DNA of 64,000 nt from positions 841 through 64,840 of the forward strand of contig CAYJIN010000002.1 of the NCBI GenBank assembly GCA_964370245.1, given 5' to 3'. This document shows, in pieces, positions 39,988 to 64,000 of the stretch. Numbering within the stretch: position 1 is the first letter of the stretch; every line of letters begins with the position of its first letter. The stretch comes from an uncultured Desulfovibrionaceae bacterium. Lineage in GTDB: Bacteria > Desulfobacterota > Desulfovibrionia > Desulfovibrionales > Desulfovibrionaceae. The position numbers and the translations under genes were made by a program. A model generated the notes under the pieces. The model made no database searches. It saw nothing but the letters and a program-made list of their open reading frames with translations, and had not been told where the DNA came from.

Positions 39988-39994
39988 AAATAAA

Positions 39995-42997: not shown

Positions 42998-43038
42998 AAT
43001 TATTACTTTTTGGTAGCTTATACAAAAAAGTAATAATT
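42998..43038. repeat. perfect 14-bp inverted repeat with 13-nt spacer
   Basis: AATTATTACTTTTT (42998-43011) pairs with AAAAAGTAATAATT (43025-43038), in the divergent dctP / BCCT-1 intergenic region. Confidence 0.9.
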
Positions 43039-43383: not shown

Positions 43384-44919
43384 ATGGAACAGAAAATTGA
43401 AAATCCCCAAGAAGGGAAATTAGATTACTTTTTATTTATTACAACATTTTTACTTATCGCTTCAGGCATTGTTTGGGGCGTTATTGACAACAGTGCGTTC
43501 GTTAAATATCTCACTGTAGCAAGAGATTTTATTACAACAAAATTTGCTTGGTTTATGATTATAGCAATCAACACCTTTTTAGGTGTTCTCTTTTATCTAG
43601 CATTTAGTCGCCATGGCGATAAAAAACTTGGTAAAAAAGATGATAAACCTGAATTCAGCACTTTTAGCTGGATTGCTTTATTGTTTGGTTGCGGTATTGG
43701 CGCTGGTTATTGCTTCTGGCCAATTGGCGAACCTTTATGGCATTATTTCTCGTCACCATACATCACAGAATCACAAACACCAGAAGCTCTTACTTCTGCA
43801 CGTGGTATAGCATTATTCCACTGGGGTTTCCACCTCTGGACATTATGGTGTATCGCTGGTTTAGCAATTGCCTACCCTGCTTTTAGATTAAATAAGCCTA
43901 TGACAATTTCAGTCGCGCTTTACGGCATGTTAGGCGACAGAGTTTACACTTCTTTCTGGGGAAGAATTGCAGAACTTTGTGGTGCTTTTGCTGCGCTTAC
44001 AGGTGTTTCTGCTGCTCTTGGTCTTGGTTTATTACTATTCACTGCTGGGCTAAGAACTATTTTTGGTTTAGAAGTTGGCGTAATGGGTCAAATTATCATC
44101 ATGGCTGTTATTATTGTTATTTATACAACAGCAGCTTGGACAGGCTTAGATAAAGGTATTAAATTCCTTGGCGATTCTAATGCTTGGATTTGTATTACTT
44201 GGTTCGTTGCTATCCTCTTATTAGGCCCAACTTCACACTTACTTGATGGTATGGTTGAAACATGGTCATTCTATTTGAGCAATATGCTTGAAATGTCAAC
44301 ATTCACTGATTCAGCTGGTGAAACAAACAACTGGTCAGGTAGCTGGACATTATTCTATTATCTCTGGAACACAGCATGGGCACCTTTTGTTGGTGGCTTT
44401 ATTGCACGTATTTCACGTGGTAGAACAATTCGTGAATATATCTTAGGCGTTCTCTTCATTCCTGTTATTATTACTTTCATCTGGTTTGGTGTATTAGGAA
44501 CAGCTGCTCAATACGTTGAATTAAACCAAATTACAAATCTCTGGGAACAAGTTCAAGCTGAACCAGCAATGGGTATTTATGCTGTTATCGATGCACTTGG
44601 TGGCGGAACAATCTTAAAAATTATTGTTTTCCTTAGCGTTGGTGGTTTCTTAGTAACTTCTGCTGATTCTGCTGCATTCTTTGTTGCAATGCAAATGAAT
44701 AGAGGTACTTTAGATCCTAGCAAATTACAAATGCTTTTCTGGTCAATTCTTATTGGTGCTTTGGCAATTGTTTTACAATCTGTCGGCGGTATTACAGGAA
44801 TTCAACTAGCAGGCGTTATTGCAGGTGCACCGTTTATTGTGATTATGTGCTTCATGGTTTACTCTTTCTTCAAGCTTCTCGCAAAAGAAGAACGTGAACA
44901 AGCCGATAACAACAACTAA
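43384..44919 (+). CDS. BCCT-family (betaine/carnitine/choline-type) transporter, copy 1
   Basis: 511-aa polytopic ORF with the BCCT signature WTLFYYLWNTAWAPFVGGFIARISRGRTIREY. GAGG/GGAG RBS. Confidence 0.9.
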   Translation: MEQKIENPQEGKLDYFLFITTFLLIASGIVWGVIDNSAFVKYLTVARDFITTKFAWFMIIAINTFLGVLFYLAFSRHGDKKLGKKDDKPEFSTFSWIALLFGCGIGAGYCFWPIGEPLWHYFSSPYITESQTPEALTSARGIALFHWGFHLWTLWCIAGLAIAYPAFRLNKPMTISVALYGMLGDRVYTSFWGRIAELCGAFAALTGVSAALGLGLLLFTAGLRTIFGLEVGVMGQIIIMAVIIVIYTTAAWTGLDKGIKFLGDSNAWICITWFVAILLLGPTSHLLDGMVETWSFYLSNMLEMSTFTDSAGETNNWSGSWTLFYYLWNTAWAPFVGGFIARISRGRTIREYILGVLFIPVIITFIWFGVLGTAAQYVELNQITNLWEQVQAEPAMGIYAVIDALGGGTILKIIVFLSVGGFLVTSADSAAFFVAMQMNRGTLDPSKLQMLFWSILIGALAIVLQSVGGITGIQLAGVIAGAPFIVIMCFMVYSFFKLLAKEEREQADNNN

Positions 44920-44957
44920 TTATTGAAATTTACTTTAGCGAAAAAAATCACAAGCTT

Positions 44958-44996
44958 AGAGAGGGTGTAAAACAAAATTTACATCCTCTCTTTTTT
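44958..44996 (+). terminator. rho-independent terminator after BCCT-1
   Basis: AGAGAGGGTGTAAA pairs with TTTACATCCTCTCT (14 bp including one G-U), followed by T5. Confidence 0.88.
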
Positions 44997-45435
44997 ATGC
45001 ATAAATTTCCTTCTAAAATGTAGAATATTTGTTTGCCTCTGAACAGTCTAGCATTAAACTATGTTATTACTTATTATTTAATAATTCATTGACCAATCAA
45101 CCAATTATTTTGTTTAAATATTTGAAAAGTCAATAAAATGTCTTGACTAATTTATATTATTATGGCATTACTATACATAAATATTTGGTTGGAAAAAGTG
45201 TTTTAACCTTTTCAACCAAAAAAATAAAAGGAGTAACTGTCGACAATCAACAATAATTTTTTTGCTGCTTTTTATTTTCCTTCACAAAATTAATAAAGAA
45301 AAAAATATGATGACCAAACATCATAATAATCTTTATAATGAATAGTTAAACTGTTGATTTTTTTTCTAATAGCTTAACTACTTAGTATGAGGCGCTTTTT
45401 GTGAAAAAATTCTAAAGTTTATGGAGTATTTATTT

Positions 45436-46866
45436 ATGTTTCCAATGAGTAAAATCAAATTAATTGACAAAGAAACCATTGAAAAAATTCACGAAGGAAC
45501 TTGCGAAGTTCTTGAAAAAGCTGGCGTTAACTTTCACCACGAAAGCGCACAGAAAATTTTTAAAGATGCTGGCTGTACAGTAGACGGCTGTAACGTAAAA
45601 ATTCCTAGAAATGTTTTTGAAAAAGCTCTTAGTCAAACTCCTTCTTCATTCACAATGCATGGTATAGATCCAAAATATACTTTTGTAGTTGGTGAAGGCC
45701 AAGAAAGAATTCACACAGATCCTAACTTTGGTACTATTATTATTCATGAGCACGGCAAAGGCTATCGTGAACCAACCATGGAAGATTTAGCAATTAACAA
45801 TAAACTTCTTCAAGCAAGTGAAATTGTTGATATTGCTGGCGGTATTCCAGTTGAATGTACTGACGTTCCTACAGTTGGCCGTCACTTGCACTACTTCCGT
45901 GAGATTTTACGTCACACAACTAAACCTTTCCGTTCATATGTTGAAAGCTATGAAAATTTACAAGAAATGTTCACCATGTTTGAAATGGTTCAAGGCACAA
46001 AAGGCTATCTTGATAACCACACATGTATGTTCGTTTCAATCAACCCATTAAGCCCATTAGCTTATGACAGCCACCCAGCACAAACACTTATTGCTATGGC
46101 TGAAAAACACCAAGCAGTTTGTACTTTAACTGCTGCTATTTCAGGCTTCACATCACCAATGAGTATCCTCGGTACTGCTGTTATGCAAAATGCTGAAATG
46201 CTTGCTGGTAATACACTTATGCAATTAGTAAACCCAGGTGCTCCTTACATGTTAGGACCAGCATCAGCTCGTCCAGATATGCGCACAGGTTTATATGCTA
46301 ACGGTTCACCAGAAGCTAACCTTATTAATATTTCAAGCATGCAAGTTGCTAAAGAACTTTACAACATCCCAACCCGTACAATGGCTGGTTTGACAGATGC
46401 TAAAGTTACTGATGCTCAAGCTGGTATGGAAACAATGCAAACTCTTATGACTGCAATGCTTGGTGGCGCTGACGTTATCCACGGTTGTATGGCATCAATG
46501 GATAGCTTAAACCTTACTTCATTTGAAAAATTTGTAATTTCTGAAGAAGCATTCTCACGTGTAATGCGTACCCAAAAAGGTATTTATAACTACGATACTG
46601 ATTTATCAGTTCAAGAAATTATTGATACTAAACCAGCTGGTACATACATGATGAACGATGCTACCCTCCTTAACTGCTCTGATACATGGCGCCCAATTGT
46701 TTCTTCACAAGAACCTTTCGCAATCTGGAAAGATGGTGGTGAAAAAACTATCGTTGATCGTGCACTTGCAAAATGGAAACAAATGCTTGCTGATGCTCCT
46801 GAAATGCAAATTTCAAAAGCTCTTGATGATGAGCTTGGCGCTTACATCAAAAAATGCGGTTACTAA
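45436..46866 (+). CDS. MttB-superfamily methyltransferase without in-frame amber codon (non-Pyl; quaternary-amine:corrinoid methyltransferase-like)
   Basis: About 476-aa ORF with an MttB-type N-terminus (LIDKETIEKIHEGTCEVLEKAGVNFHH...AGCTVDG) and an uninterrupted frame. The start is taken at the ATG 9 nt after GGAG; the track ORF starts at 45421. Confidence 0.85.
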   Translation: MFPMSKIKLIDKETIEKIHEGTCEVLEKAGVNFHHESAQKIFKDAGCTVDGCNVKIPRNVFEKALSQTPSSFTMHGIDPKYTFVVGEGQERIHTDPNFGTIIIHEHGKGYREPTMEDLAINNKLLQASEIVDIAGGIPVECTDVPTVGRHLHYFREILRHTTKPFRSYVESYENLQEMFTMFEMVQGTKGYLDNHTCMFVSINPLSPLAYDSHPAQTLIAMAEKHQAVCTLTAAISGFTSPMSILGTAVMQNAEMLAGNTLMQLVNPGAPYMLGPASARPDMRTGLYANGSPEANLINISSMQVAKELYNIPTRTMAGLTDAKVTDAQAGMETMQTLMTAMLGGADVIHGCMASMDSLNLTSFEKFVISEEAFSRVMRTQKGIYNYDTDLSVQEIIDTKPAGTYMMNDATLLNCSDTWRPIVSSQEPFAIWKDGGEKTIVDRALAKWKQMLADAPEMQISKALDDELGAYIKKCGY

Positions 46867-47177
46867 AACCAGTTTTTCTAACTAGTTTTATTCAGTAAAA
46901 TTCCTTTTTCGAATTTTGGATATAGTATTTATCCAAAAACTCTATACTTATATTCAAAATTCGATAAGGGTTTGAAATAATCACACAAAAATAATTATCA
47001 AAGTAGTAATCTAAAGGGGGGATTTATCTCTATCTTATACTATGTGATAAATCCTGATTATTAATGTATTGTAATTTAATTATTTTCGAATAACTTCCTT
47101 ATTTAATTCTCTTATTTGAATATAAAAAAATTATAATATCCTTTGATAGTATTTTATATAACTTTCGGAGGGGCTTT

Positions 47178-48719
47178 ATGAATAGTTCAGATGAAAACAT
47201 GCAAGAAGGGAAAATAGATTATTTTCTATTTATCACAACCTTCTTACTCATCGGTGCTGGTATTGTTTGGGGATTAGTTGATAACGCGAGCTTTGTTGCA
47301 CGCCTTAGCGTTGTGAGAGATTTTTTAACTGGTAACTTTGGTTGGTTTATGATTATCATGATCAACCTCTTCATAGGTATCTTGTTTTACTGTGCATTTA
47401 GTAAACATGGTTTAAAGAAATTAGGTAAAAAAGACGATAAACCTGAATTCTCTACTTTCAGCTGGATTGCTTTATTATTCGGTTGTGGTATTGGTGCTGG
47501 TTACATTTTCTGGCCTATAGGCGAACCATTATGGCACTATTACAGCACACCTTACCTTGCTGCTTCAGAAACACCAGAAGCTTTATTAGTGGCACGTGCA
47601 ATTTCACTTTTCCACTGGGGCTTCCACCAATGGGCTATTTTCTGTATAGCTGGTTTATTTATTGCTTACCCTGCTTTCAAACTTGGTAAACCAATGACTG
47701 TTTCAGTTGCTTTATACGGAATTATGGGTGATAGAGTTTATACATCTTTCTGGGGCCGTTTAGCTGAATTATGTGGTGCATTCGCTGCGCTAACAGGTGT
47801 TGCTGCTGCTCTTGGTTTAGGTTTATTACTTTTCACCGCTGGTCTAAAAGCTATTTTCGGTATTGAAGTTGAGCTTATGGGTCAAGTTATTATCATGCTT
47901 GTTGTTATTGCAGTTTACACAGCTGCAGCATGGACAGGCCTTGATAAAGGTATCAAATTCCTTGGCGATTCAAACGCTTGGATTTGTATTGTTTGGTTCG
48001 TAGCTATCTTAGTTTTAGGTCCTACAGCTCATCTTTTAGATGGTATGGTTGACACATGGGGCGCTTACTTCCAAGCACTTCCAACTATGACTTTCTTTGC
48101 TGATGCTGATAAATCATCTAACAACTGGCCTGCAAGCTGGACAGTATTCTACTATCTCTGGAACACTGCATGGGCACCTTTCGTTGGTGGCTTCATTGCA
48201 CGTATTTCACGTGGTAGAACAATTCGTGAATACATCTTTGGTGTTCTCTTCATTCCTGTAGCAGTTGCTTTTGTTTGGTTCGGTATCCTTGGAACAGCAG
48301 CTCAATATGTTGATCAAAACCAAATCGTAAACATTTGGGAACAAGTTCAAGCGCAACCTGCTTTAGGTATCTATGCTGTTGTTGATGCAATTGGTGGTGG
48401 TACAATCATTAAATTGATCGTATTCTTATCAGTTGGTGGCTTCCTTGTAACATCTGCTGATGCGGCTGCATTCTTCGTTGCTATGCAAATGAACCGTGGT
48501 ACATTACACCCTAGCAAAATGCAAATGTTATTCTGGTCATTCATGCTTGGTGGTCTTGCAATCGTGCTTCAATCTGTTGGTGGTATTGGCGGTATTCAAC
48601 TTGCTGGTGTTATCTCAGGCGCACCATTCATGATTATTATGTGCTTTATGATTTACTCTTTCTTCAAACTTCTCTTCCAAGCTGATGCTGAAGAAGAAGC
48701 TGAAAAAGCAGGGAAATAA
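47178..48719 (+). CDS. BCCT-family transporter, copy 2 (close paralog of copy 1)
   Basis: 513-aa ORF, colinear and mostly identical at protein level to 43384..44919 but diverged at many synonymous sites. GGAGG RBS. Confidence 0.9.
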   Translation: MNSSDENMQEGKIDYFLFITTFLLIGAGIVWGLVDNASFVARLSVVRDFLTGNFGWFMIIMINLFIGILFYCAFSKHGLKKLGKKDDKPEFSTFSWIALLFGCGIGAGYIFWPIGEPLWHYYSTPYLAASETPEALLVARAISLFHWGFHQWAIFCIAGLFIAYPAFKLGKPMTVSVALYGIMGDRVYTSFWGRLAELCGAFAALTGVAAALGLGLLLFTAGLKAIFGIEVELMGQVIIMLVVIAVYTAAAWTGLDKGIKFLGDSNAWICIVWFVAILVLGPTAHLLDGMVDTWGAYFQALPTMTFFADADKSSNNWPASWTVFYYLWNTAWAPFVGGFIARISRGRTIREYIFGVLFIPVAVAFVWFGILGTAAQYVDQNQIVNIWEQVQAQPALGIYAVVDAIGGGTIIKLIVFLSVGGFLVTSADAAAFFVAMQMNRGTLHPSKMQMLFWSFMLGGLAIVLQSVGGIGGIQLAGVISGAPFMIIMCFMIYSFFKLLFQADAEEEAEKAGK

Positions 48720-48735
48720 CAATTAAATAATGAAT

Positions 48736-48780
48736 AAATAGTGAATAGAATTATTATACTTCTATTTACTATTTATTTAG
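48736..48780 (+). terminator. terminator hairpin after BCCT-2
   Basis: AAATAGTGAATAGAA (48736-48750) pairs with TTCTATTTACTATTT (48760-48774), 15 bp including one G-U, followed by ATTTA. Confidence 0.7.
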
Positions 48781-48846
48781 AAATAACCACTTGATTTACT
48801 TATGTTATATTGAATAAAACTTTTAGTGAAATAAGCCATTTTTTGG

Positions 48847-48875
48847 TTGACTTGAAATAAAATTTTGCATACAAT
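48847..48875 (+). promoter_or_regulatory. near-consensus sigma70 promoter for the MtmB-like gene
   Basis: TTGACT (48847-48852), a 17-nt spacer, then TACAAT (48870-48875). A GAGGAG RBS precedes ATG 48927. Confidence 0.6.
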
Positions 48876-48926
48876 TATAACAATTTCCACACCAACAATT
48901 TAACCATTCTCGAGGAGAATATTTTT

Positions 48927-50303
48927 ATGAGACTTATTGATATTTACAGACGTACTACTTCAGGAGAAAAAGTAGACGAAAGTTCATACGATCTTGATTA
49001 CGTATACTTTGGTCTTGAAGATGTTAAAGAAAAATATGACATCAAATATAGCCCAGAAAACCCAGTTTCTGCTGATGATGATTTAGCTGACCGTGTTTTC
49101 AATGCAGCTGTAGAATTCTTTGAAAAAACAGGTATGTACTGTTCAGATACAGGGCGTATTGTTAAATTTACACGTGAAGAAATTGAATTTGCTATTTCAG
49201 AAGAAGGCCATCGCCGTTGTATCGGTGGTGAAGGCGAAAGCCGTCGTGAATGGCGTTGCCGTCGTCCTGACGAACACAGCCGCCCATGGTGCCACATTGG
49301 TTCAGGTATCTACACAAGCTCAGACGAACTTTTCTTAAAACAAGTTGAAGCTTATGCTAGAATTGCTCGTGCTGACTCAATGGCAATTCCAACTCTTATG
49401 AACGATCCTGAAGGTAATGATAACAACGAAGATTTCGCTTCACATCCATCAGAAGTTATGGCTACAATGCACAACATGCGTTTAGCTCGTGAAGCATGTA
49501 AAAATGCTGGCCGTCCTGGCTTCCCAGTATTCAACGTTGTTCCTTCATCATCATGCGCAATGTCAACAATCGCTGCTTCACACCCTAACTGTGGAACACG
49601 CACATCAGACGGTTGGTTATGTGCATTCTATCCTGAATTCAAATTGAAATTAGAAACACTTAACAAAATCACTTTCATCAATGAAATTGGTGGTAACCCA
49701 GCTGCTGAAGCTTCAACACTTCTTGGCGGTTTCTGTGGTGGTCCTGAAAACACATCTATCGGTGTTGTTGCTCACGCTATCATGGGTTGCTTACTCAACT
49801 GTACTTACTACTTAAACTTCCCAGTTACAGTAAAAGGCGCTCACTCAACAAGCCGTCCTCTTCTTTGGAGCTTAGGTCTTGCTTCACAAGCGATTTCTCG
49901 TAACATATTCTTACCTACATACAACTCAGGTTACTCAGCACACGGTGCAGGTACTAAAGAATACTTCTATCAATCAGCTGCTTACATCTTAACAGGTGTT
50001 ACATCTGGTGTTACAACAGGTACTCCTTTCCCTGCTGTTGGTGTTAAAACTGATGGTATGACTCCAATGGAGCCATTATTCCACACATTAATGGCTGATG
50101 CTGCATCAAAATTAACACGTGCACAAGCTAACCCAATCGTTCTAAAACTTCTTGAAAAATATGAAGATAAATTAGACAATCCAGATCTTGGTTACACATT
50201 CCCAGAACTCTACGACCTTGATACAGTAACTCCAAAACCACATTACCAAAAAATGTTTGATGAAGTTATTGAAGAATTAAAAGCTTTAGGCGTGCCTTTA
50301 TAA
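48927..50303 (+). CDS. MtmB-family (monomethylamine methyltransferase-like) protein lacking pyrrolysine
   Basis: 458-aa uninterrupted ORF. It is colinear by eye with archaeal MtmB as I recall it (GMYCSDTGRIVKFTREEI; ACKNAGRPG; C-terminal TFPELYDLDTVTPKPHY...LKALGVPL). The position matching Pyl202 is TTC (Phe) at 49530-49532. Confidence 0.75.
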   Translation: MRLIDIYRRTTSGEKVDESSYDLDYVYFGLEDVKEKYDIKYSPENPVSADDDLADRVFNAAVEFFEKTGMYCSDTGRIVKFTREEIEFAISEEGHRRCIGGEGESRREWRCRRPDEHSRPWCHIGSGIYTSSDELFLKQVEAYARIARADSMAIPTLMNDPEGNDNNEDFASHPSEVMATMHNMRLAREACKNAGRPGFPVFNVVPSSSCAMSTIAASHPNCGTRTSDGWLCAFYPEFKLKLETLNKITFINEIGGNPAAEASTLLGGFCGGPENTSIGVVAHAIMGCLLNCTYYLNFPVTVKGAHSTSRPLLWSLGLASQAISRNIFLPTYNSGYSAHGAGTKEYFYQSAAYILTGVTSGVTTGTPFPAVGVKTDGMTPMEPLFHTLMADAASKLTRAQANPIVLKLLEKYEDKLDNPDLGYTFPELYDLDTVTPKPHYQKMFDEVIEELKALGVPL

Positions 50304-50338
50304 GCCACTTGCTTATAATACGACCTAGTTACTAGATT

Positions 50339-50372
50339 AAGGGAAAGTAAAGAAATTTGCTTTCCCTTTTTT
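50339..50372 (+). terminator. rho-independent terminator after the MtmB-like gene
   Basis: AAGGGAAAG (50339-50347) pairs with CTTTCCCTT (50360-50368), followed by TTTT. Confidence 0.85.
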
Positions 50373-50500
50373 AAAATCAATATTTTCCATATTTTTCTAT
50401 GGAACTATACTACTTTTTTATTTCAGCTTTATATCTTATACTATATTTTCTTATTTAGATTATTCCATTGAATGAAATAAAGAAAGAAGATGGAGTTTTT

Positions 50501-52036
50501 ATGAATAATGAAAAAATACCACATATTTACAAAAATTTAAATGTTTCACTTTTTTGTGTAACTATTACTTCTTTGATAGCTATTCTTAGCTACGCTTTTT
50601 TTGATTTTACTGCATTTAGTGAAACAATTAATTTTCTCAGAAGTGCTATAATTTCTAATATTTCTTGGTTTATTGTTATTAGTTTGAATGTTTTTCTATG
50701 TTTTTTACTTTATTTAGCTTTTTCAAAATATGGTGAAAAAAAACTAGGTAAAGACGATGAAAAACCTGAACTTTCAACTTTTTCTTGGGTTGCTTTACTT
50801 TTTGGTGCTGGCGTTGGTTCTGGCTTTTGTTTTTGGCCAATTGTTGAACCTTTATGGCATTACTATACAACACCATATCTCTATGAATCACAAACTAAAG
50901 AAGCACTTAGTCTAGCAAAAGCAATCACCTTTTATAATTGGGGTTTTCATATGTGGACACCCTGGGCTTTGGTTGCCTTAGCAATTGCTGTTCCAGCTTT
51001 TCGCCAATCAAAACCCATGACAATATCTGGTTCATTATTAGGTATCTTAAAAGAGAAAACTGATACCTCAATTTATGGAAAAATAGCCTCTATTATTGGG
51101 ATGATAGGAACTATTTTTGCCATTTCTATGGCATTAGCGACTGGAATTTTACTAATTTCAGCTGGCATATATGATGTTTTTGGCATAGAAGTAACTCCAC
51201 TGCATCAAATATATATAATGATTATCTTTACAATTATTTATGTAACTGCTGCATGTTCAGGCCTTGAAAAAGGTATGACTTTCTTAGGCGATTCTAACAT
51301 TTACATACTTGCAATTTGGTTTAGTTTTCTTCTTATTTCAGGGCCGACAGCTACTATGCTCAACGGTATAATAGACACACTTGGCGCTTACACAAGTTCA
51401 TTTTTTAAAATGGCATTATTCACCGATTCTACAAAACAAACCGATAATTGGCCTGGCACTTGGAGTATCTTTTATTATCTATGGAATATTGCATGGGCAC
51501 CTTATGTTGGCGGTTTTATTGCAAGAATTTCTCGTGGACGCACTATTCGACAGTTCATACTTGGAGTTTTGATTCTACCCGTAACAGTAACACTTGTTTG
51601 GGTTGGAATTATGGGCACAGGCGCTCAATATGTTGATCAAAATCAACTGCTTGATATTATGGCAAGAGTAAATAAAGACCCTGCTTTAGTTGTTTATGCT
51701 CTTATTGAAGCTTTTGGTGGTGGTATATTCATGAAAAGTCTAATATTACTAAACATAATAACTTTTGTTCTTACTGCTGCAAATTGCGCTTCATATTTTA
51801 TTGCAATGCAAATGACAAATGGTTCACTTAATCCACCGAAATTTCACCTTATTATTTGGGGAATTATTATTGGACTTTTAGCTATTATCGTTATAAATTT
51901 AGGTGGCGTAAGTGGAATTCAAGCAATAGCAGTTATTGCTGGCGCGCCATTTCTGTTTATTGTATGGATTATGGCTTTTTCACTTTTCTTATATTTAAAA
52001 AATGAAGAACAATTCTTCAATATACATAGCAAATAA
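50501..52036 (+). CDS. BCCT-family transporter, copy 3 (divergent)
   Basis: BCCT signature WSIFYYLWNIAWAPYVGGFIARISRGRTIRQF. The start is set at the ATG 5 nt after GGAG; the track ORF begins at a TTG at 50468. Confidence 0.88.
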   Translation: MNNEKIPHIYKNLNVSLFCVTITSLIAILSYAFFDFTAFSETINFLRSAIISNISWFIVISLNVFLCFLLYLAFSKYGEKKLGKDDEKPELSTFSWVALLFGAGVGSGFCFWPIVEPLWHYYTTPYLYESQTKEALSLAKAITFYNWGFHMWTPWALVALAIAVPAFRQSKPMTISGSLLGILKEKTDTSIYGKIASIIGMIGTIFAISMALATGILLISAGIYDVFGIEVTPLHQIYIMIIFTIIYVTAACSGLEKGMTFLGDSNIYILAIWFSFLLISGPTATMLNGIIDTLGAYTSSFFKMALFTDSTKQTDNWPGTWSIFYYLWNIAWAPYVGGFIARISRGRTIRQFILGVLILPVTVTLVWVGIMGTGAQYVDQNQLLDIMARVNKDPALVVYALIEAFGGGIFMKSLILLNIITFVLTAANCASYFIAMQMTNGSLNPPKFHLIIWGIIIGLLAIIVINLGGVSGIQAIAVIAGAPFLFIVWIMAFSLFLYLKNEEQFFNIHSK

Positions 52037-55018: not shown

Positions 55019-57439
55019 ATGACAAGCAAACTTCGCATCATATTAGGTTTTACTTTTCTAACCTGTATGACAATCTTTTTAGCATTTATAAGCTATCAAT
55101 CTGCAAGTGAATCAAGTAAAAATTTAGAAGAATTTTTAAATTTCGATTCTGCTGATTCAATCACTTATAGAACAGAAATTGATATTTATAAAATTGCTTA
55201 CCACCTTGATCAATTTAGTTTACATCAAAATCAATCAGATATTGATAGTGTAAAAGCTTCTGTTAAGCGTGCTCTTGATGATAATAAACAGCTTATTAAT
55301 ATAGTACCTGATAAATCGAAAAGTAAAATTCAAGATATTGTTACATATTTAGAACAATTAAATAAATCCTTAGACAATTATTTTACACATAGTAGAGAGC
55401 TAAGAAAAGCTATAACTACGGATTTAGTTTTTGCTGAAAAAGAACTTATGAAAGCTTTATCAGATATTCTACATCTTATGTTTAACGCAAATGATTTGGA
55501 AGCTATAGAGAAAGTAAATGAAGCTGAGAGAGAAATTATAAATTACCAAGGACATTTAGAAGCTTATCTACTTTCACAAAATCAAAAATCCTTTGAAAAG
55601 GCTATAGAAGCTGAAGAAATCCTCTTAGAAGATATTAATAGTATTTTAGAAATGAAAGATAAACACTTCTTTGCGGATATAACTCCTTTTGATAGTCTTG
55701 AATCAAAAAGAATCAATTTTGAAGAAATAGCACATAAACTTGAAGCGGAAAGTAGTAAATTAGCAGAAGAAATATCTGAATTAGATACTATTCGCTCAAA
55801 TATCATGAAGATTATTTTACCATTAAGCATTACTGCTGCTGATGGTGCAAAAAACGAGTTAAAAGCGGTAACTAATCTTTCACAAAATGCATCAAAACAA
55901 GTGCTTATAATTTCTGCAATAGCTGTTATTGTAAGTGCTTTAGTAACTATTATTATTGTTACTAAGCTTTCTTCTACTCTTACAAAAATGGCTAATTATG
56001 CACAAAGTATAGCACAAGGGCGTTTTGATGCACATTCTGGCATTACAGAAAAAGGCGATATTGGTCTTGTATTAAATGGTATAAAAGAAATCACTAATAC
56101 ACTTACTACACTAAAAGAAGATTTTTATACAAATGCCAATAGTGTTTCTAGTGGTTACTTGGCTAGTGAAATTGAAAAAGACAAATATAACAATAGTTTC
56201 GCAGACCTAGCAAATAATTTCAATATTATGGCTAGTTGTTATCGTAAACTAATTGATACTATGTCAGTTGCTGTATTTACTGCAACTTCTGATAATACAA
56301 TACTTTATATAAATGAAATAGGTAAAAAATTCATAAAAAATGATAATCCTCTTGGCACAAATTGTGGCAACCATTTTAGGTCACCTGCATGTGGTAATGA
56401 AAACTGTCTTGGATTAACAGCATTCAATAAAGGTGATCAAATAAATGCTATTGCACCATGTTTGCCAAATAATGAAGAATATTTCTTTGATGTACAAGCA
56501 AGCCCACTCTATGATTTAAACAATCAACCTATTGGTTATGTTGAATTTTTAGCTGATATTACTAAAGTTCAAAAACAAGGTCAGGCAATCAAGCAAATGA
56601 CTGATCAAGCAATTGAAGTTGCTGCAAGGGTTGCTTCAGCAGCTGATGAACTTTCATCACAAACTGAATATATTGTTGAAGGATCAAATTTCCAACGTGA
56701 ACGAATTGAAAGCACTAGCACTGCAATGACTGAAATGAATGCCTCTGTGCAAGAGGTTGCTTCAAACGCTTCAAATACTGCAGATCAAAGTAATATCGTT
56801 CTTGAAAAAGCAAGAGAAGGAATTACAACAATTCTTAAAATGTCAGAAGCTATGAGTTCATTAACAAATTCTGCTGAAAATCTTAAATCAAATATGGAAA
56901 AACTTGATAGCCTTTCTGAAGGTATTGGAAGCATTATCAATGTGATCAACGATATTGCAGATCAAACTAACCTACTTGCATTAAACGCCGCTATTGAAGC
57001 AGCAAGAGCTGGCGAAGCTGGACGTGGATTTGCTGTTGTTGCTGATGAAGTAAGAAAACTTGCTGAAAAAACAATGGATGCAACTCGTGAAGTTGGTGAA
57101 AGTGTTCGCTCAATTCAAGATTCAAGTAATGCAAATCAAGATGAAGTGAAACGTGTTGTTCTTCAAATTACACAAACAGCTGAATTTGCAGAACTTTCAG
57201 AAAGCTCATTGCAAGAAATTGCAAGCGTAACAGGTCAAAACACAGATATGATTCATCAAATTGCAAATGCTGCTGGTGAACAAACAACAGTTTCAGAAGA
57301 AATTTCACAATCAATGAGCGATATTAATGAAGTTGTGAATAAAAATGCTGAAGCTATATTGCAGTCCGCTGATGCAATTCGTGAATTAGCAAAGCAAGCG
57401 CAAGAACTGCAAGATTCAATGAGCAAAGTTAGTTTCTAA
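55019..57439 (+). CDS. methyl-accepting chemotaxis protein (helical periplasmic sensor, HAMP, Cys-rich PAS-like domain, MA domain)
   Basis: 806-aa ORF with an N-terminal TM segment and a second TM near residue 300. The conserved signalling hairpin is present ([38 protein letters not shown]). GGAGG RBS. Confidence 0.92.
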
Positions 57440-57460
57440 ATTCGTGTTATAAAGAAAATA

Positions 57461-57490
57461 AAAGGGAATTGAAACTCAATTCCCTTTTTT
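57461..57490 (+). terminator. rho-independent terminator after the chemoreceptor gene
   Basis: AAAGGGAATTGA (57461-57472) pairs with TCAATTCCCTTT (57476-57487), followed by TTT. Confidence 0.88.
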
Positions 57491-57570: not shown

Positions 57571-58779
57571 TTACTCTTCAATTTCTTTTTGTTCAAGAGT
57601 AGATATAATTTTTAAAAGTTTGTTTACTTCAGTTTTGAATGAAAATCTTGTACTTGAATATTTTCTAGCTTGCACTCTAACAAGGTTTTGTTTTTCATTA
57701 TCAGAAAGTATTTCAAGCATTAATTTAGAAAGTTCTACATCACTTTTGTAATTCGATAAATAGCCATTTGTACCATGAATTATAAACTCTTCTAAAGCAG
57801 GATGATCTTGTGCAATTACGAGACTACTACATGCTAAAGCCTCATAGAAAGAAGAATTAACAAAAAGTTGATCAAAGAAAAACAAATGTATCTTTGAATA
57901 AATTAACGCTGCCCTATACTCTTCAATAGTTGCATTTGTATGCAAAATAATTCTATCTTTATAGTGGGATAGTATTTTTTCAAATTCAGAAAAAATCTCA
58001 TTAAAATCTTCTTGACTCGTTTTATCTTTTGTAAGCATAAGAACACGTGCAGATGGGTTTTCATTGAAAACAGTTTTTAATGCTTTTAAAGCATTGAGCT
58101 GTTCGGGAGTTTTTTTAAAAACTCGTGGTGCAAAAAGAATTAAATCATTCTCTTCATAACCTTTTAAATAGTCAGGAATAATGTCTTTTTTTGCAGGTGA
58201 AAAAAAGTCTGTATTAATACCTTCATTAATTATAGTCATTTTTTTTTGCAAAAATTCCGGATAAGATTTTTTTTGATATTGAGAAAAAGTAATAAGCTTA
58301 GTTGCATGGCGAATAGTTTCCATTTGAAACATATTATTCACACCATGCGAAAGAAGAAAAGGATCTTCCTCTTCCCTAGTTATAGAAAGTTCTTCATTGA
58401 GTTCATCTTCAGGAATAAACCAATCACAAAAACAAATAGTTGGCACATTAGGAAACACCCTGTGCAATGAAAAAGAAGTAGCGTGATTTGAGTCAAGAAA
58501 AATAAAATCAGGAGTAAAGCCTGTGTTTTTTAAACGCAAAAGAGCATTAGAAAAAATTAACCCTCTTCGTAATAAACGAATAGAATTTTGTTCTGCTTTG
58601 TTTCCTTTATAATATACTTTTGGAAATCTTATATTAGTATATATAATGTTTTTATGAGATAACTTTTTATGCCTATATTCAGAAAAAAAATGTACTTGGT
58701 CAGTATTTTTCAGAGAAAAATATAGCAAAATATTTTGAAACCTTGCTGGATAATATTTTGAAATAAAAAGAATTTTCAT
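57571..58779 (-). CDS. GT-B fold glycosyltransferase (group 1 / GT4-like)
   Basis: 402-aa ORF. The C-terminal half has a GT4-type region (FYEALACSSLVIAQDHPALEEFIIHGTNGYL). Confidence 0.7.
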   Translation of the reverse strand: MKILFISKYYPARFQNILLYFSLKNTDQVHFFSEYRHKKLSHKNIIYTNIRFPKVYYKGNKAEQNSIRLLRRGLIFSNALLRLKNTGFTPDFIFLDSNHATSFSLHRVFPNVPTICFCDWFIPEDELNEELSITREEEDPFLLSHGVNNMFQMETIRHATKLITFSQYQKKSYPEFLQKKMTIINEGINTDFFSPAKKDIIPDYLKGYEENDLILFAPRVFKKTPEQLNALKALKTVFNENPSARVLMLTKDKTSQEDFNEIFSEFEKILSHYKDRIILHTNATIEEYRAALIYSKIHLFFFDQLFVNSSFYEALACSSLVIAQDHPALEEFIIHGTNGYLSNYKSDVELSKLMLEILSDNEKQNLVRVQARKYSSTRFSFKTEVNKLLKIISTLEQKEIEE

Positions 58780-58983: not shown

Positions 58984-61065
58984 TTAGGATTTTTCAACAA
59001 TTAAAGCTTTAGCACCTTCTGGTGTGTTGATAACTTCAGTAAGAATTTTTACTAATTCTTGGTCGAATTTATTTTGATCTTCACTAAGTCTTCCTAAAGC
59101 ATCTGAAATTGGTAAACCTTTTCTAAAAGCACGTTCACTAATCATAGCGCAAAAAGCATTAGTAATAGCAAGAATACGTGCTTGTATAATAATTTCGCTA
59201 CCTTTTAGACCTTTAGGGTAACCATTACCATCCATTTGTTCATACATTTCAAGAACCGAAGAAGCAATTGGAGCACTAAACCCGATGCCAGAAAGAACTT
59301 CATGCGCTTTAATTGGAAGTTTTTTAATTTCAGCAAGCTCTGATTCGTCAAGTTTACCTGTTTTTGTAAGAATATCGCGGCTAATAAAGAGTTTACCAAT
59401 TTGTGAGAAAATGGAAGCATTATCAACAGTTTGAACTTCTTCAGGGCTCATACCCATATGCTTAGCCATCAAAACACCAACATTTGACATCATTTGTGAA
59501 TGCCCTGTTAAGTATGGGTCAACACCTTCAATTGCGCGAACAAAAGCATGTACAATATTTTCTTGTTGCTTTCTGTTTTTCTCACTATTACGTCTAAAGG
59601 CAGTAATATCTTGAAGAGTTGCAACAGCACCTGAAATATCAGTATTATCAATGTTATCATTCGGGTTATCATGGAAAGGATAAAGAGTTACACGGAATAA
59701 TAAAGTATCATGCGGTTTCTCAACTTCAATTTCAAAGTTTAGCGGATTACCCTCTTTCACAACATGATTTACTTTTTCCATAAAACTAGCAGCTAATTGA
59801 GGAGCAAAAACTGACATTAAATTAGCATCTTTCATTTTTTCGTCATCAGCATCAACAATTTCATTAAAAGTTTTGTTTGAAATTTTAATAAAACCTGAAG
59901 AGTCAACTAAAATCAAACCAACTTCTAAGGAAAGATTAATACTGTCGAGTAAACCTTTTTGTTGTGCGATAACATCATAAAGATTTCTGAAACGTGTTGC
60001 TACAGCTTTTTGTTCTGTACCAATAACTACCCACCATAATAAAGCAAAAAGTAAAGTTACACCTAAACTTGCAAGCGCACCTAAACCATAGGTAGTCCAT
60101 GCTAATGACTTGAATATTTGATTAATATTTACACTTGGGTTTTCTAAAACTACATATAAGTCAAGGCCAGGAACTTTTTCACCATAAGAATACACTTCTT
60201 GGTTTGATGCAACAGATAATCTTACACCAAAAGGCAGAATACCATTTTCAAAACTTACAGTATTTTTAACTTCTTGCGGTTGTGGAGATTGAATTTGAAT
60301 GCTTTGGAACACATCACCATTTTTTTGAATGATTTGTGGAACTAAGCCTGATTCTGAATGTAGTTCACGTGATAAAAATTGCGCTATTTGATTTGTAACT
60401 GGTAAAGTTAAAAGTAATGCCGCAATAGGTTTTTCACTATTTTCTACAAAAAGAGGTGGAATTGGAAGAGCATAATCTATAACCATAGTTGCTGCAGATG
60501 ATCGTATTGGAGCGAATGTAATTGTATTTGTTTCAATAGCTTTTAGCGCAGCATTTTTTTGATCTTCAGTAAGAGGTGTAGGTATTTGTAAACCTGAAAG
60601 AATTGTAGTGCCGTTTGCGCCAATAAGTCTTGCATCTGTCATACCATTATATGACATAAAATCATAAAGAACATCACGCATGAGCGGAACTTGTTCAATA
60701 AAAGTATCATAATCAGGATTAAGATTGCGTGTTTGTGTATCAAGTGTATTAATTTCACTTGCAACAGCATCACCAGCCATACGAACTTCTTCTAGAAACA
60801 TACGATAAAGTTCAGATGTGCTCACTCTTTGCCCTTGCTCATCAACACTTTCTGTCCAGATGTTCATCGCTTGCACTGTGCCTTGCACCCATGTTGTAAG
60901 CACAATATTTTCTTCATCAAGTATTGCTTTTTTCTTGCTCTCTAAACTTACAGTGCATACATAATATGCAGCTGTAAAAATAAACATAAGCAAACCAGCA
61001 ATAATCAAAATTGCATACTTTTTCTGCATTAAGGCATAAAGTGGATTTTGTTCATTAGTTTTCAT
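58984..61065 (-). CDS. transmembrane sensor protein with large periplasmic domain, PAS-like linker and degenerate HD-GYP domain
   Basis: 693-aa ORF with TM1 near residues 17-40 and TM2 near residues 325-350. The C-terminal domain aligns by eye to HD-GYP and keeps GYP (DGNGYPKG). The HD dyad reads SQ (IFSQIGK), HHE reads MYE, and the DxxD block reads NAFCA. Confidence 0.8.
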   Translation of the reverse strand: MKTNEQNPLYALMQKKYAILIIAGLLMFIFTAAYYVCTVSLESKKKAILDEENIVLTTWVQGTVQAMNIWTESVDEQGQRVSTSELYRMFLEEVRMAGDAVASEINTLDTQTRNLNPDYDTFIEQVPLMRDVLYDFMSYNGMTDARLIGANGTTILSGLQIPTPLTEDQKNAALKAIETNTITFAPIRSSAATMVIDYALPIPPLFVENSEKPIAALLLTLPVTNQIAQFLSRELHSESGLVPQIIQKNGDVFQSIQIQSPQPQEVKNTVSFENGILPFGVRLSVASNQEVYSYGEKVPGLDLYVVLENPSVNINQIFKSLAWTTYGLGALASLGVTLLFALLWWVVIGTEQKAVATRFRNLYDVIAQQKGLLDSINLSLEVGLILVDSSGFIKISNKTFNEIVDADDEKMKDANLMSVFAPQLAASFMEKVNHVVKEGNPLNFEIEVEKPHDTLLFRVTLYPFHDNPNDNIDNTDISGAVATLQDITAFRRNSEKNRKQQENIVHAFVRAIEGVDPYLTGHSQMMSNVGVLMAKHMGMSPEEVQTVDNASIFSQIGKLFISRDILTKTGKLDESELAEIKKLPIKAHEVLSGIGFSAPIASSVLEMYEQMDGNGYPKGLKGSEIIIQARILAITNAFCAMISERAFRKGLPISDALGRLSEDQNKFDQELVKILTEVINTPEGAKALIVEKS

Positions 61066-61110
61066 TACTTACTCCAATAATCTTTATATCTAACAATTAT
61101 AAAACTTAAA

Positions 61111-61788
61111 CTATTTTTTCTTACTTCTTACATGACCCCATCTGTATTTTTCATTAACAGAATATTGAGGTTCATAGTTACCGAGTTTGGTATGTGATAA
61201 AACTGCATTTGACAAGTTATCAAGAATATACACATCGCCATCCATGTAAACACCTAAAATAGCGTGTGCAATATTTCTAATTTTTTCTATTACTATAATA
61301 AGTCGCATATCATCAGGATTAAAGCCTAATTCTTTCAGCGTAAAATACTTTGCAATTGCATAATCTTCACAATCGCCTGATGTTTTTTGAAATTGTTTTG
61401 GAATTGCCCAATAATCGGGTTTTTTATAAACGGTTTGATCTAGTCTATAAGGCCATTGATTCCAAAACTTATTCACTTCACGTAATTGTTCCATTTTTGA
61501 AAGATTTTGCAAACGTTCCTTCAAACTATTCCACGATGTATTCTTATTCAACATAAATCCATCAACTAAAATAGGTGAGGCAGCATTTCTTTCTAAAACA
61601 CTTACCCATTGCGGAAGTGTAGAAATTCTACTTCTAAACTCTTTTGTACCAAAAAGATTAATTTTTTCAGCTGCATAAACATTATTTGAATAGAAAGAAG
61701 TGCAAGTAAAGGTAAGAAGAAGTGTTAAAAGAAAAATAGCACGAAAAACTTTACTAGAAGGTAAATCCCTCCTAATAAAGTTTTTCAT
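61111..61788 (-). CDS. bacterial transglutaminase-like cysteine proteinase (BTLCP, LapG-like), periplasmic
   Basis: Signal peptide (FRAIFLLTLLLTFTCTSFYSNNVYA) and a Cys-His-Asp triad context (SGDCEDYAIAKY, NIAHAILGVY, YILDN). The start is set at the internal ATG (MKNFIRR); the track ORF starts at 61836, inside the HlyD gene. Confidence 0.8.
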   Translation of the reverse strand: MKNFIRRDLPSSKVFRAIFLLTLLLTFTCTSFYSNNVYAAEKINLFGTKEFRSRISTLPQWVSVLERNAASPILVDGFMLNKNTSWNSLKERLQNLSKMEQLREVNKFWNQWPYRLDQTVYKKPDYWAIPKQFQKTSGDCEDYAIAKYFTLKELGFNPDDMRLIIVIEKIRNIAHAILGVYMDGDVYILDNLSNAVLSHTKLGNYEPQYSVNEKYRWGHVRSKKK

Positions 61789-61816
61789 AATTATTTTATA
61801 ATTTGCTAGTGATCTC

Positions 61817-63529
61817 TTAGCGTTCTCTAAGCGCATTATCCTTAGCCTTTAGTATCGGTTTTAATAGATACTGCATAATTGTCTTTTTACCAGTAACAAT
61901 ATCAACACTTGCGATCATTCCAGGAATAATTGGAAGAGTTTCACCACGATATTCAAGTCTATTTTCTTTTGTGCGTAATTTTACAAGGTAAAAGTATTCT
62001 TGGTTTGGACCTTCAGTAGTATCAGCACTGATTTGTTCAACATATGCTTCTAAGCCACCGAAAATTGAAAAGTCATAAGCTGTAAGTTTAACCATTGCGT
62101 ATTGATTAGGATAAATAAAACCGATATCAGCAGGACGAATTTTTGCTTCAATAAGAAGAGTATCATCTAAAGGAACAACTTCCATAATTGGCTCACCAGG
62201 ACGAACCGCAGAACCACGTGTGTTTAGAACAATACGGTTAACAACACCACGCATAGGTGAACGGATTTCTGTTCTTACTACTCTATCTTGACCAGTTGTA
62301 AGTGTTTCTTTGAGAGAATTTACTTCTGATGTTAATTCGTTAATTTCAGCAATAAGTTTTGTATCATATTCTGACTTGAAAACTCTTTGTTTAAGCTCAG
62401 TTTCTTCAATAGCAGTAGTAGCTTTAGAAATATTACTTTGTAGTGTGCTCATTTCACCTTCAAGGCTTACTATCTCTTGTTGTAGATTAAGAAAATCTAC
62501 TTCAGCATACAAGCCACGATCAACCATAGGACGAGCTAAGTTCAATCTTTGTGAAGTTAGTTGATGAGTTTGTTCAACAGTGAGCAGACGTTTTTCTAAA
62601 TCGTCAAGTTCAAATTGTGCTTGCTGGCTTTGAGCTGCTAAAACACTTAACTCAGATTCGAATTGTAAACGTCTTGTATTATACACTTGTGTTTGTAATG
62701 CAACAACATCAGGTGCTGCATCAATAAGTTCTTGGGAGTAAACCAAAGCTTCATTTCTTAATTCAGCGCGTAAACGAATAATTGAAGCATCGAGATTGTA
62801 AATTTTTTGCTGCGTATCACGAATAACAGATTCGGCTGCAACGTTTTCAACACGTGCTAAAACTTGCCCTTCTTCAACAATAACACCCTCTGTTACGAGA
62901 ATATCCATAAGAATACCACCCTCCAAGTGAGTGATAACTTGAGTTCTTGAAGATGCAATAACTTGACCTTGTCCACGTGTTAGTTCATCAACTGTTGCCC
63001 ATGAAGCCCACGCAATAAATGAAAGTAATAAACCTAAGATGAGAAGTGTTACAACTCTTTGTTTTTTTGAACCTGTATCATTCCAAACTGCATCAATATC
63101 ACCTAAAAATGCTTTATCTTCATCGGAGATTTGATCTCTTTTCCCTGAAAATAAATGTGCAGCTTCATCTTTTTTTGCTTGATTTTCTTTTGTAATTTGC
63201 TGAGCAGGTTGACTCTGAGCTTGCTGTGGTGAAGTTTTATTAGCTTGATCTGCGAAAGATTTTTGAGCTTGACTAGCATCAAGACCAACTGATGAAAGTC
63301 CAGATTTATCGGCAACAGGTTGAACAGCTTTTGCTTCATTTGTAGTAGGTAAAATATCTTCTTGCTTCATTTCAACAATTGAATTTTGCTGCGCTAAAGC
63401 GTTATTTTTACTCTCTTCAATTTTACTAGCTGCCTCATCACTTCCTGCTTTTGCTTGATAAGCTGGAACTTTTTTAGGCTTTATTTTACCAATTGGTGTT
63501 ACACCAGAATTATTATTTGTATTGCTCAT
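61817..63529 (-). CDS. HlyD-family type I secretion membrane fusion protein with about 150-aa low-complexity N-terminal extension
   Basis: 570-aa ORF with one TM (VVTLLILGLLLSFIAWASWA), coiled-coil and barrel-sandwich regions, and a C-terminal GMIASVDIVTGKKTIMQYLLKPI typical of HlyD/LapC. Confidence 0.88.
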   Translation of the reverse strand: MSNTNNNSGVTPIGKIKPKKVPAYQAKAGSDEAASKIEESKNNALAQQNSIVEMKQEDILPTTNEAKAVQPVADKSGLSSVGLDASQAQKSFADQANKTSPQQAQSQPAQQITKENQAKKDEAAHLFSGKRDQISDEDKAFLGDIDAVWNDTGSKKQRVVTLLILGLLLSFIAWASWATVDELTRGQGQVIASSRTQVITHLEGGILMDILVTEGVIVEEGQVLARVENVAAESVIRDTQQKIYNLDASIIRLRAELRNEALVYSQELIDAAPDVVALQTQVYNTRRLQFESELSVLAAQSQQAQFELDDLEKRLLTVEQTHQLTSQRLNLARPMVDRGLYAEVDFLNLQQEIVSLEGEMSTLQSNISKATTAIEETELKQRVFKSEYDTKLIAEINELTSEVNSLKETLTTGQDRVVRTEIRSPMRGVVNRIVLNTRGSAVRPGEPIMEVVPLDDTLLIEAKIRPADIGFIYPNQYAMVKLTAYDFSIFGGLEAYVEQISADTTEGPNQEYFYLVKLRTKENRLEYRGETLPIIPGMIASVDIVTGKKTIMQYLLKPILKAKDNALRER

Positions 63530-63607
63530 TCTATTCTCACTTAATTTTAGAACTTCAAATTAACGATTAGAACATAATATCTATCACACATAGGCTAGTA
63601 TAAAAGC

Positions 63608-64000
63608 TTATGCATCCTGACCATGTTTATCAGTTACTTTTACAAAATCATCAGGATATGCTTGTTCAGCACTATTATTTTTTTCGTTTTCTTCTTGAAG
63701 TTTTAAAGAAGCATTTGGTGCTTGTTCACTAGATTTCACTCTTTTAGGATCAGTATTTCCTGGTTGATTATTTACTAATGAATTAGCAACTGTTGGCTTT
63801 TGTGCATGATTTGGGCCTTGTTCCGCTTTTTGATCTTGATTTTGATTATCAACTGTTGGAGCTTGTTGTTTGCTGTTTAACCATGCATATACTTCTTTTG
63901 TAGGACCATCAGCAACAATTTTACCGTCTTGAACAACAATAAGTCTTGTTGTGAGCTCTAACAAGCTCATACGGTGCATATTAATAATTAAAGTTTTGTT
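63608..64000 (-). CDS. type I secretion ABC transporter ATPase/permease, C-terminal end only (5' part beyond window), with Q/N-rich tail
   Basis: The frame is open to position 64000 and reads ...KTLIINMHRMSLLELTTRLIVVQDGKIVADGP (end of the ABC domain), followed by about 90 low-complexity residues. Confidence 0.7.
   Translation of the reverse strand, partial: NKTLIINMHRMSLLELTTRLIVVQDGKIVADGPTKEVYAWLNSKQQAPTVDNQNQDQKAEQGPNHAQKPTVANSLVNNQPGNTDPKRVKSSEQAPNASLKLQEENEKNNSAEQAYPDDFVKVTDKHGQDA

Follow-up and report, generated by a model that had tools for sequence, protein, structure and literature searches.

A stretch of 64,000 nt of DNA from an uncultured Desulfovibrionaceae bacterium (contig CAYJIN010000002.1; the whole stretch is called the window here) carries at positions 58984-64000 a locus that very likely forms the 3' portion of an operon of the Dvh type (non-canonical Lap), which comprises TolC, ABC, HlyD, DvhG and DvhD genes. 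The canonical Lap logic combines an adhesin anchored in a type I secretion system (T1SS), a periplasmic BTLCP protease and an inner-membrane cyclic di-GMP (c-di-GMP) receptor with a dead phosphodiesterase-type domain, and it works from the inside out. DvhD and DvhG are the proteins DVU1020 and DVU1019 of Desulfovibrio (Nitratidesulfovibrio) vulgaris Hildenborough (Karbelkar et al., 2024, PMC10990149; Font et al., 2026, PMC13090378), and the window locus is an uncultured gut-type Desulfovibrionaceae copy of this published system. An earlier, sequence-only reading of the window had proposed a binding-only HD-GYP receptor in the place of LapD that controls a LapG-like protease near a T1SS. This proposal is supported through the homologue DvhD. 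The idea of a LapD-independent HD-GYP switch was right but not new, having been published for D. vulgaris in 2024 and 2026 (PMC10990149, PMC13090378). Overall, a Dvh-type switch is the best explanation of the locus and can be held with good confidence.

The published system has been characterized in several respects. DvhD has a high affinity for c-di-GMP, with a dissociation constant (Kd) of 322 nM in one study (PMC10990149) and ~99 nM in the other (PMC13090378). No c-di-GMP hydrolysis by DvhD was detected with any metal tested, and its crystal was metal-free (PMC13090378). When the pair was reconstituted in a Pseudomonas fluorescens ΔlapGΔlapD background, DvhD was shown to restrain DvhG in step with the c-di-GMP level (PMC10990149). 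DvhG cuts two substrates, DvhA and DVU1545, at the motif [T/A/P]AAG in a calcium-dependent manner, and the Trp-binding pocket through which LapG engages LapD has been reported to be occluded in DvhG (PMC10990149, PMC13090378).

In the window, the region under study carries the following features, all on the minus strand and given in the direction of transcription, with the domains of the receptor after the receptor itself:

63608..64000, minus strand: 3' end of a partial type I secretion ABC permease/ATPase gene (dvhB/lapB-like), which runs past the window edge
61817..63529, minus strand: HlyD-family type I secretion periplasmic adaptor (dvhC/lapC-like), 570 aa (TIGR01843, 5.3e-112; PF13437, 7.9e-15)
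61111..61836, minus strand: DvhG/LapG-like BTLCP (Peptidase_C93) cysteine protease, 241 aa (PF06035, 1.9e-18)
58984..61065, minus strand: putative DvhD-type inner-membrane c-di-GMP receptor, 693 aa, with a first transmembrane segment, a periplasmic dCache domain, a second transmembrane segment, a PAS domain and a degenerate HD-GYP domain
60094..60942, minus strand: periplasmic dCache-like domain of the receptor, residues ~42-324 (match to 9RC2, 4.3e-26; TM-score 0.87)
59590..59928, minus strand: cytoplasmic PAS domain of the receptor, residues 380-492 (PF08448, PAS_4, 2.3e-6; aligns with the PAS part of 9RC0)
59053..59544, minus strand: degenerate HD-GYP domain of the receptor, residues 508-671 (PF13487, HD_5, 8.4e-33)
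58961-58929, minus strand: intrinsic-terminator-like hairpin with a 14-bp GC-containing stem and then a T-rich tail, 22 nt past the receptor stop codon

The four genes (partial ABC exporter, HlyD adaptor, BTLCP protease and 693-aa receptor) are collinear, with distances from ABC to HlyD, HlyD to protease and protease to receptor of 78 nt, a 20-nt overlap and 45 nt. The terminator hairpin has a folding energy of -18.3 kcal/mol (z = -5.7), and none of 200 shuffled sequences folds as well. Four same-strand genes with short gaps and a terminator after the last one had been described by the sequence-only reading, and coordinates, spacings and hairpin all agree with it. An Rfam search of the window matched a tRNA alone (7385-7458), with neither a riboswitch nor any other RNA close to the operon.

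The TolC gene and most of the ABC gene fall outside the window. Residues 1-44 of the ABC fragment correspond to the C-terminal end of the TIGR03375 type I secretion permease/ATPase (1.9e-11). Related loci were obtained by a scan of GTDB species representatives, which returned 80 loci, and in tblastn comparisons the ABC fragment is 59-83% identical to the ABC genes of related operons. In one relative (L001), a complete 840-aa ABC_membrane+ABC_tran gene is preceded by a TolC-like OEP gene, and TolC lies upstream of ABC in relatives L001-L007. A linked T1SS is represented in the window itself by the partial ABC gene and the HlyD gene. Both proteins carry added segments. In the ABC protein, a low-complexity tail of ~85 aa (63608-63870, minus strand) comes after the nucleotide-binding domain, and in the HlyD adaptor ~155 aa rich in Q, A and K extend the cytoplasmic N-terminus ahead of the single predicted transmembrane segment (157-181). 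The HlyD and ABC proteins of the closest relatives have extensions of a similar type, with sequences that differ from those in the window.

The protease aligns with the LapG structures 4FGO (1.8e-20) and 4U65 (4.2e-19) of the Protein Data Bank (PDB), motifs included. Its catalytic triad is intact, as had been claimed, and consists of C156 (in GDC156ED), H191 (in AH191AIL) and D206 (in ILD206NL). The cysteine is flanked by the calcium-site residues D155 and E157, the counterparts of D316 and E318 in the D-C-E calcium motif that DvhG activity has been shown to need (PMC10990149, PMC13090378). Against the LapG equivalog model NF045674 the protease scores 93.7 bits (8.9e-27), below the equivalog cutoff of 320. 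By this profile score the protein is a member of the BTLCP/C93 family and no LapG equivalog, which would fit a DvhG-type protease over a gammaproteobacterial LapG. The N-terminus has a single hydrophobic segment (30-48) followed by VYA-AE and resembles a signal peptide, or perhaps a short signal anchor. Most DvhG orthologues have been reported to have signal peptides, and D. vulgaris DvhG has a transmembrane helix and a disordered linker of ~180 aa (PMC10990149, PMC13090378).

In the receptor, two hydrophobic segments (~15-41 and ~325-351) enclose ~283 periplasmic residues. The sequence-only reading had described two transmembrane segments, a periplasmic domain of ~290 aa and an HD-GYP domain; this outline stands, although it passed over the PAS domain and did not recognise the periplasmic part as dCache. 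The best three PDB matches of the receptor by phmmer are 9RC0 (PAS/HD-GYP, 9.4e-49), 9RBZ (HD-GYP, 5.3e-40) and 9RC2 (periplasmic, 4.3e-26), all annotated there as 'HD domain/sensory box protein'. All three are crystal structures solved for D. vulgaris Hildenborough DVU1020 (DvhD), 9RBZ being the HD-GYP domain with c-di-GMP bound (Font et al., 2026, PMC13090378). An AlphaFold2 model of the receptor was built from an alignment of 27 family sequences (mean predicted local distance difference test score, pLDDT, 82.6). A Foldseek search of this model against the PDB returned the same three structures at the top (target-normalised TM-scores of 0.73 for 9RC0, 0.87 for 9RC2 and 0.91 for 9RBZ), with active HD-GYP enzymes and the dCache ligand-binding domains of Mlp24, Mlp37, TlpA, McpH and KinD lower in the list. 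Since the top matches in both sequence and structure are DvhD structures, the receptor is a full-length homologue of DvhD. The homology covers residues 61-310 (4e-26) and 365-688 (9e-49), as matches to separate PDB fragments and not to full-length DVU1020; the published criterion for a DvhD orthologue is a coverage of >=85% with E <=1e-50 (PMC10990149, PMC13090378). After the first periplasmic helix, the model has separate short helices (H8-82, H85-97, H99-107), reminiscent of the broken alpha1/alpha1' helix described in the DvhD dCache domain (PMC13090378). By analogy with DvhD, the dCache domain is a candidate docking surface for the protease. The published DvhD-DvhG interface involves helix alpha1', in the area of the conserved motif RVSxSELYR(L/M)F (residues 80-90).

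The canonical Lap system of P. fluorescens and other Gammaproteobacteria (LapD/LapG/LapA/LapEBC) shares its switch logic with the window locus, and the window protease is homologous to LapG. The window receptor, in contrast, is unrelated to LapD. A Pfam scan of the receptor found no LapD_MoxY_N, HAMP, GGDEF or EAL domain and returned PAS and HD_5 alone; membership of the LapD family was rejected on this basis. The sequence-only reading had also compared the receptor with the YN-GYP protein of Pseudomonas, and DvhD is by far the closer comparator.

The HD-GYP domain of the receptor retains GYP, in D612GNGYPKG (G615, Y616, P617), and is degenerate in the other motifs. HD is replaced by SQ in IFS554Q555IGK, HH by MY in M607Y608E609, and the aspartate of DxxDA by asparagine in N636AFCA. 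All of these motifs had been quoted correctly in the sequence-only reading, and its claim that most metal ligands are lost holds when the domain is aligned with HD-GYP structures. The eight metal ligands of the tri-iron enzyme PmGH (Bellini et al., 2014) have a numbering that is consistent with the 4MCW alignment. They correspond to the following receptor residues:

PmGH E185: receptor Y518
PmGH H189: receptor H522 (retained)
PmGH H221: receptor S554
PmGH D222: receptor Q555
PmGH H250: receptor L583
PmGH H276: receptor M607
PmGH H277: receptor Y608
PmGH D305: receptor N636

The receptor keeps one of the eight ligands (H522) versus two in DvhD (H527 and H588), and the intact HD, HH and D metal set of a catalytic HD-GYP phosphodiesterase is absent. 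The phosphodiesterases PmGH (4MCW), PA4781 (4R8Z) and V-cGAP3 (5Z7C) and the degenerate protein Bd1817 (3TM8) share the fold, the GYP loop and the nucleotide pocket with the receptor. The receptor differs from the phosphodiesterases in having no bi- or tri-nuclear metal site, and from Bd1817 in that the latter is a soluble protein whose degeneracy lies in the GYP motif instead. Unlike the receptor, none of the four is paired with a BTLCP protease. Among the 27 family members, S554, Q555, E609, D612, G613, G615, P617, N636, R645 and R648 are invariant, and the position of Y616 is tyrosine in 22. Because S554, Q555, N636, E609 and the DGxG.P residues are invariant, the degenerate active site is ancestral and under selection and no product of decay.

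The nucleotide pocket has been retained to a much larger extent than the metal centre. In DvhD, the canonical c-di-GMP contacts are Y523, L577, K582, Y621, M646, R650, Y652, R653 and E668 (PMC13090378), and receptor numbers are obtained by subtracting 5 from the DvhD numbers. Six contacts are identical in the receptor (Y518, L572, Y616, M641, R645 and R648), and two are conservative swaps (Y652 to F647 and E668 to D663). With its metal centre gone and most c-di-GMP contacts in place, the receptor is, with high probability, a binding-only c-di-GMP receptor and no enzyme.

The likeness to the published system extends to the gene order (ABC-HlyD-protease-receptor), the receptor architecture (transmembrane segment, dCache, transmembrane segment, PAS, HD-GYP), the replacement of HD by SQ and of the first H of HH by M, the motif NAFCA, the canonical site (eight of nine residues identical or conservative), the C-H-D triad and D-C-E calcium motif of the protease, and the host family Desulfovibrionaceae. 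The differences are also several. The window receptor lacks the bridging residues of DvhD (K520, P567 and R569) and has lost H588 (L583 in the receptor), the N-terminus of the window protease is short and resembles a signal peptide in place of the transmembrane helix and long linker of DvhG, a gene of the GT4 glycosyltransferase family follows the receptor gene, no adhesin gene is linked at the window locus, and the genome is low in GC (34% in the window). Every testable feature of the Dvh system is present, the bridging-site residues excepted.

The mechanism proposed for the locus follows that of D. vulgaris. The T1SS would export a large LapA-like adhesin, whose N-terminal retention module would plug the outer-membrane channel. 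The periplasmic, calcium-dependent DvhG-like protease would cut the adhesin at [T/A/P]AAG and so release it. The DvhD-like membrane protein would act as a dimeric receptor that clamps c-di-GMP in its HD-GYP pocket, and the change driven by c-di-GMP would cross the membrane to the dCache domain, by which the protease would be restrained. At high c-di-GMP the adhesin would stay on the surface and biofilm would be favoured; at low c-di-GMP the protease would be freed and the adhesin released. The most likely direction of regulation is that the window receptor restrains the protease when c-di-GMP is high, and not when it is low.

Several points weigh against a Dvh-type switch of this kind. Support comes from homology to the characterized DvhD, and the cytoplasmic part is just 34-38% identical to that of DvhD. 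The phosphate contact K582 is lost (L577 in the receptor), the sole canonical contact for which this is the case. None of the three bridging-site residues is kept (K520 to V515, P567 to S562 and R569 to D564). In D. vulgaris, the DvhD P567T mutant has been shown to respond more weakly to c-di-GMP (PMC13090378). Because the bridging residues differ and this mutant is impaired, the stoichiometry or cooperativity of c-di-GMP binding may differ from that of DvhD. Furthermore, a regular-expression scan of the rest of the window found no GGDEF, EAL, HD-GYP or PilZ motif, and c-di-GMP signalling in this organism is assumed. Finally, no adhesin gene was found in the window, where the largest open reading frame (ORF) encodes IF-2 (1075 aa) and GGxGxD is absent in all frames, nor in the 10 kb to either side of the operon of the closest relatives. 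The bridging site itself has been called possibly specific to DvhD by its authors (PMC13090378). It is not established as a family-defining feature. Position 562 is proline in 20 of the 27 family members, the family majority, and the adjoining R563 is invariant.

The absence of an adhesin gene from the window had been stated by the sequence-only reading and is confirmed. The contig continues for at most ~2 kb past position 64000, which is less than the ~2.4-2.5 kb of the ABC genes of relatives. Within 10 kb of the 80 related loci, adhesin fragments were found beside distant family members alone (L027, L036, L063, L067 and L079). In L079 (1-1668, minus strand), a giant ORF transcribed divergently from the operon begins with a beta-rich module and a helix, after which comes PETAAG near residue 110, and in L063 (1-798, minus strand) the N-terminus of a large adhesin-like protein, likewise transcribed divergently, has EPAAG near residue 65. 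The L079 and L063 proteins are candidate DvhG substrates in those metagenome-assembled genomes (MAGs). In L027, L036 and L067, RTX-repeat C-termini end just upstream of the T1SS genes. Other large ORFs near many of the loci were rejected as unrelated to an adhesin; these encode a phosphoenolpyruvate-utilising enzyme, a GGDEF-EAL sensor, a giant flagellin and IleRS. A profile of the three adhesin C-termini, run against a set of 5.8 billion proteins, matched short contig-end fragments of Desulfovibrio, Mailhella and Avidesulfovibrio alone, with none from the clade of the window. In D. vulgaris, the second DvhG substrate, DVU1545, is encoded far from the dvh genes DVU1012-DVU1020, as judged by locus-tag number (PMC10990149, PMC13090378). 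An unlinked adhesin substrate in the window genome is plausible.

The variation in the nucleotide pocket also bears on the alternative that survives best, in which the receptor is of the DvhD type and either responds to another nucleotide, such as 3'3'-cyclic GMP-AMP (3'3'-cGAMP), or binds c-di-GMP with a different stoichiometry that does without the bridging site. DvhD binds 3'3'-cGAMP just ~5-fold more weakly than c-di-GMP (PMC13090378), Hypr GGDEF enzymes have been found in Deltaproteobacteria (PMC10990149, PMC13090378), and the receptor differs at the specificity residue (E668 to D663) and at all three bridging residues. However, the canonical aromatic/arginine clamp is conserved (Y518, L572, Y616, M641, R645, F647 and R648), aspartate for glutamate is a conservative change that represents the family majority at this position (17 of 27 members), and a cGAMP synthase was not seen in the window. 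This alternative is quite unlikely. More doubtful still is a main flow of signal from the outside in, by which the dCache domain would sense a small molecule and the PAS/HD-GYP part would serve as output or integrator, control of the protease being secondary or absent. dCache domains are typical ligand sensors, the modelled periplasmic domain resembles the ligand-binding domains of the chemoreceptors Mlp24, Mlp37, TlpA and McpH, and a ligand for the DvhD dCache domain could not be excluded by its authors, although no ligand density was seen in it (PMC13090378). This direction of flow would end in a degenerate HD-GYP domain without a known enzymatic output, and the near-obligate pairing with a BTLCP gene (70 of 73 loci) speaks for the protease as its partner. 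It is also compatible with a Dvh-type switch, as LapD-type receptors can integrate signals in both directions. Last, an active HD-GYP phosphodiesterase for the local breakdown of c-di-GMP close to the T1SS, as an enzyme and no receptor, was rejected as highly improbable: the good HD_5 score, the retention of GYP and of one metal ligand and the alignments with active V-cGAP3 (2e-27) and PmGH (1.1e-19) stand against the loss of seven of the eight PmGH ligands to S, Q, L, M, Y, N and Y, which are unable to coordinate metal likewise, and against DvhD, which has one more histidine than the window receptor and showed neither hydrolysis with any ion nor metal density (PMC13090378).

The Dvh-type switch also finds support in the conservation of the gene pair. 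The 80 related loci come nearly all from Desulfovibrionaceae (uncultured MAGs, Mailhella, Bilophila, Desulfovibrio and Halodesulfovibrio). In 73 of them there is enough upstream sequence to count the protease gene, and in 70 of these the gene immediately upstream of the DvhD-like gene is DvhG-like. The sequence-only reading had suggested checking whether the pairing of BTLCP and HD-GYP genes is conserved, and this count answers in the affirmative. Two of the three exceptions have a DvhG match that abuts a truncated DvhD match. An HlyD gene is found upstream in 33 of 52 loci. The closest relatives (L002-L010) are 54-73% identical and belong to low-GC (33-39%) MAGs of study ERP123703, and the identical receptor protein occurs once in the public protein set. 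In this closest clade the genes run TolC-ABC-HlyD-DvhG-DvhD-GT4 and the flanking genes are unrelated, for example NrdD on the opposite strand. Mailhella, Bilophila and Halodesulfovibrio have been listed among the holders of DvhDG in a published survey (PMC10990149, PMC13090378), and the lineage of the window is therefore within the known taxonomic range. One complete ABC-HlyD-DvhG-DvhD locus (L014, contig JBOFSQ010000054.1), 42% identical to the window receptor, is from a MAG labelled Thermoguttaceae (Planctomycetota) and has a 943-aa flagellin-like ORF at its edge. It is an artefact of binning or contamination, or else it left Desulfovibrionaceae by horizontal transfer.

The inventory of four genes given by the sequence-only reading was correct and overlooked a fifth gene on the same strand beyond the terminator:

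57571..58779, minus strand: GT4-family glycosyltransferase, 402 aa (PF12000, 1.1e-18; PF00534, Glycos_transf_1, 8.8e-8)

The gene has a promoter-like site of its own ahead of it. In 21 related loci a GT4 gene directly follows the DvhD-type gene, and in six of them it lies within the operon; the loci noted as bearing GT4 are L001-L011, L016, L018-L021, L023, L026, L032, L037, L054 and L064. Glycosyltransferases are present in the published table of Dvh neighbourhoods and are not discussed in its text (PMC10990149, PMC13090378). DvhD-type genes thus have GT4 as a conserved neighbour, which has no demonstrated part in the switch. In six Desulfovibrionaceae MAG loci (L016, 5929-12049; L018, L020, L021, L023 and L032), two receptor paralogues occur in the order TolC-ABC-HlyD-DvhD1-GT4-DvhG-DvhD2. 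DvhD1 and DvhD2 are ~30% identical and both have SQ for HD, and DvhD1 retains more residues like those of D. vulgaris (the equivalents of H588, P567 and E668). The window receptor is nearer to DvhD2 (41.5%) than to DvhD1 (28%). A more speculative view, judged unlikely, is that the receptor of the low-GC clade works unlike the D. vulgaris prototype, with one c-di-GMP per protomer and without the dimer-locking third nucleotide, that coupling to GT4 adds a second output controlled by c-di-GMP, and that the two-receptor loci form an undescribed switch. If this were true, the second output could be that, for example, the adhesin or a surface polymer is glycosylated.

Other genes of the window lie outside the operon. 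A methyl-accepting chemotaxis protein gene with an internal PAS (55019-57439, plus strand) converges on the GT4 gene, and the two share a bidirectional terminator-like hairpin (57460-57488). A corrinoid-dependent methylamine/quaternary-amine methyltransferase cluster (35005-52036) includes the following genes:

35005-36786, minus strand: RACo activase
39995-41350, minus strand: URO-D/MtaA-like gene
43384-44919, 47178-48719 and 50468-52036: three BCCT transporters
45421-46866: MttB-family gene
48927-50303: MtmB-family gene, 458 aa (PF05369, 1.3e-70), an uninterrupted ORF with no in-frame stop

The MtmB gene of methanogens carries an in-frame UAG (pyrrolysine) codon.

In D. vulgaris, the switch has already been established by genetics, biochemistry and structure, and the window locus alone opens no new question. 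What the locus adds is the presence of a Dvh system in an uncultured, low-GC (34%) lineage of Desulfovibrionaceae, and it draws attention to the recurrence of GT4 beside the receptor gene and to the duplication of receptors in sister lineages. It also supplies natural variation at the bridging c-di-GMP site, which could inform which features of DvhD are essential. An inside-out switch that is built on HD-GYP and is independent of LapD matters for the control of biofilm in sulfate reducers and in gut Desulfovibrionaceae.

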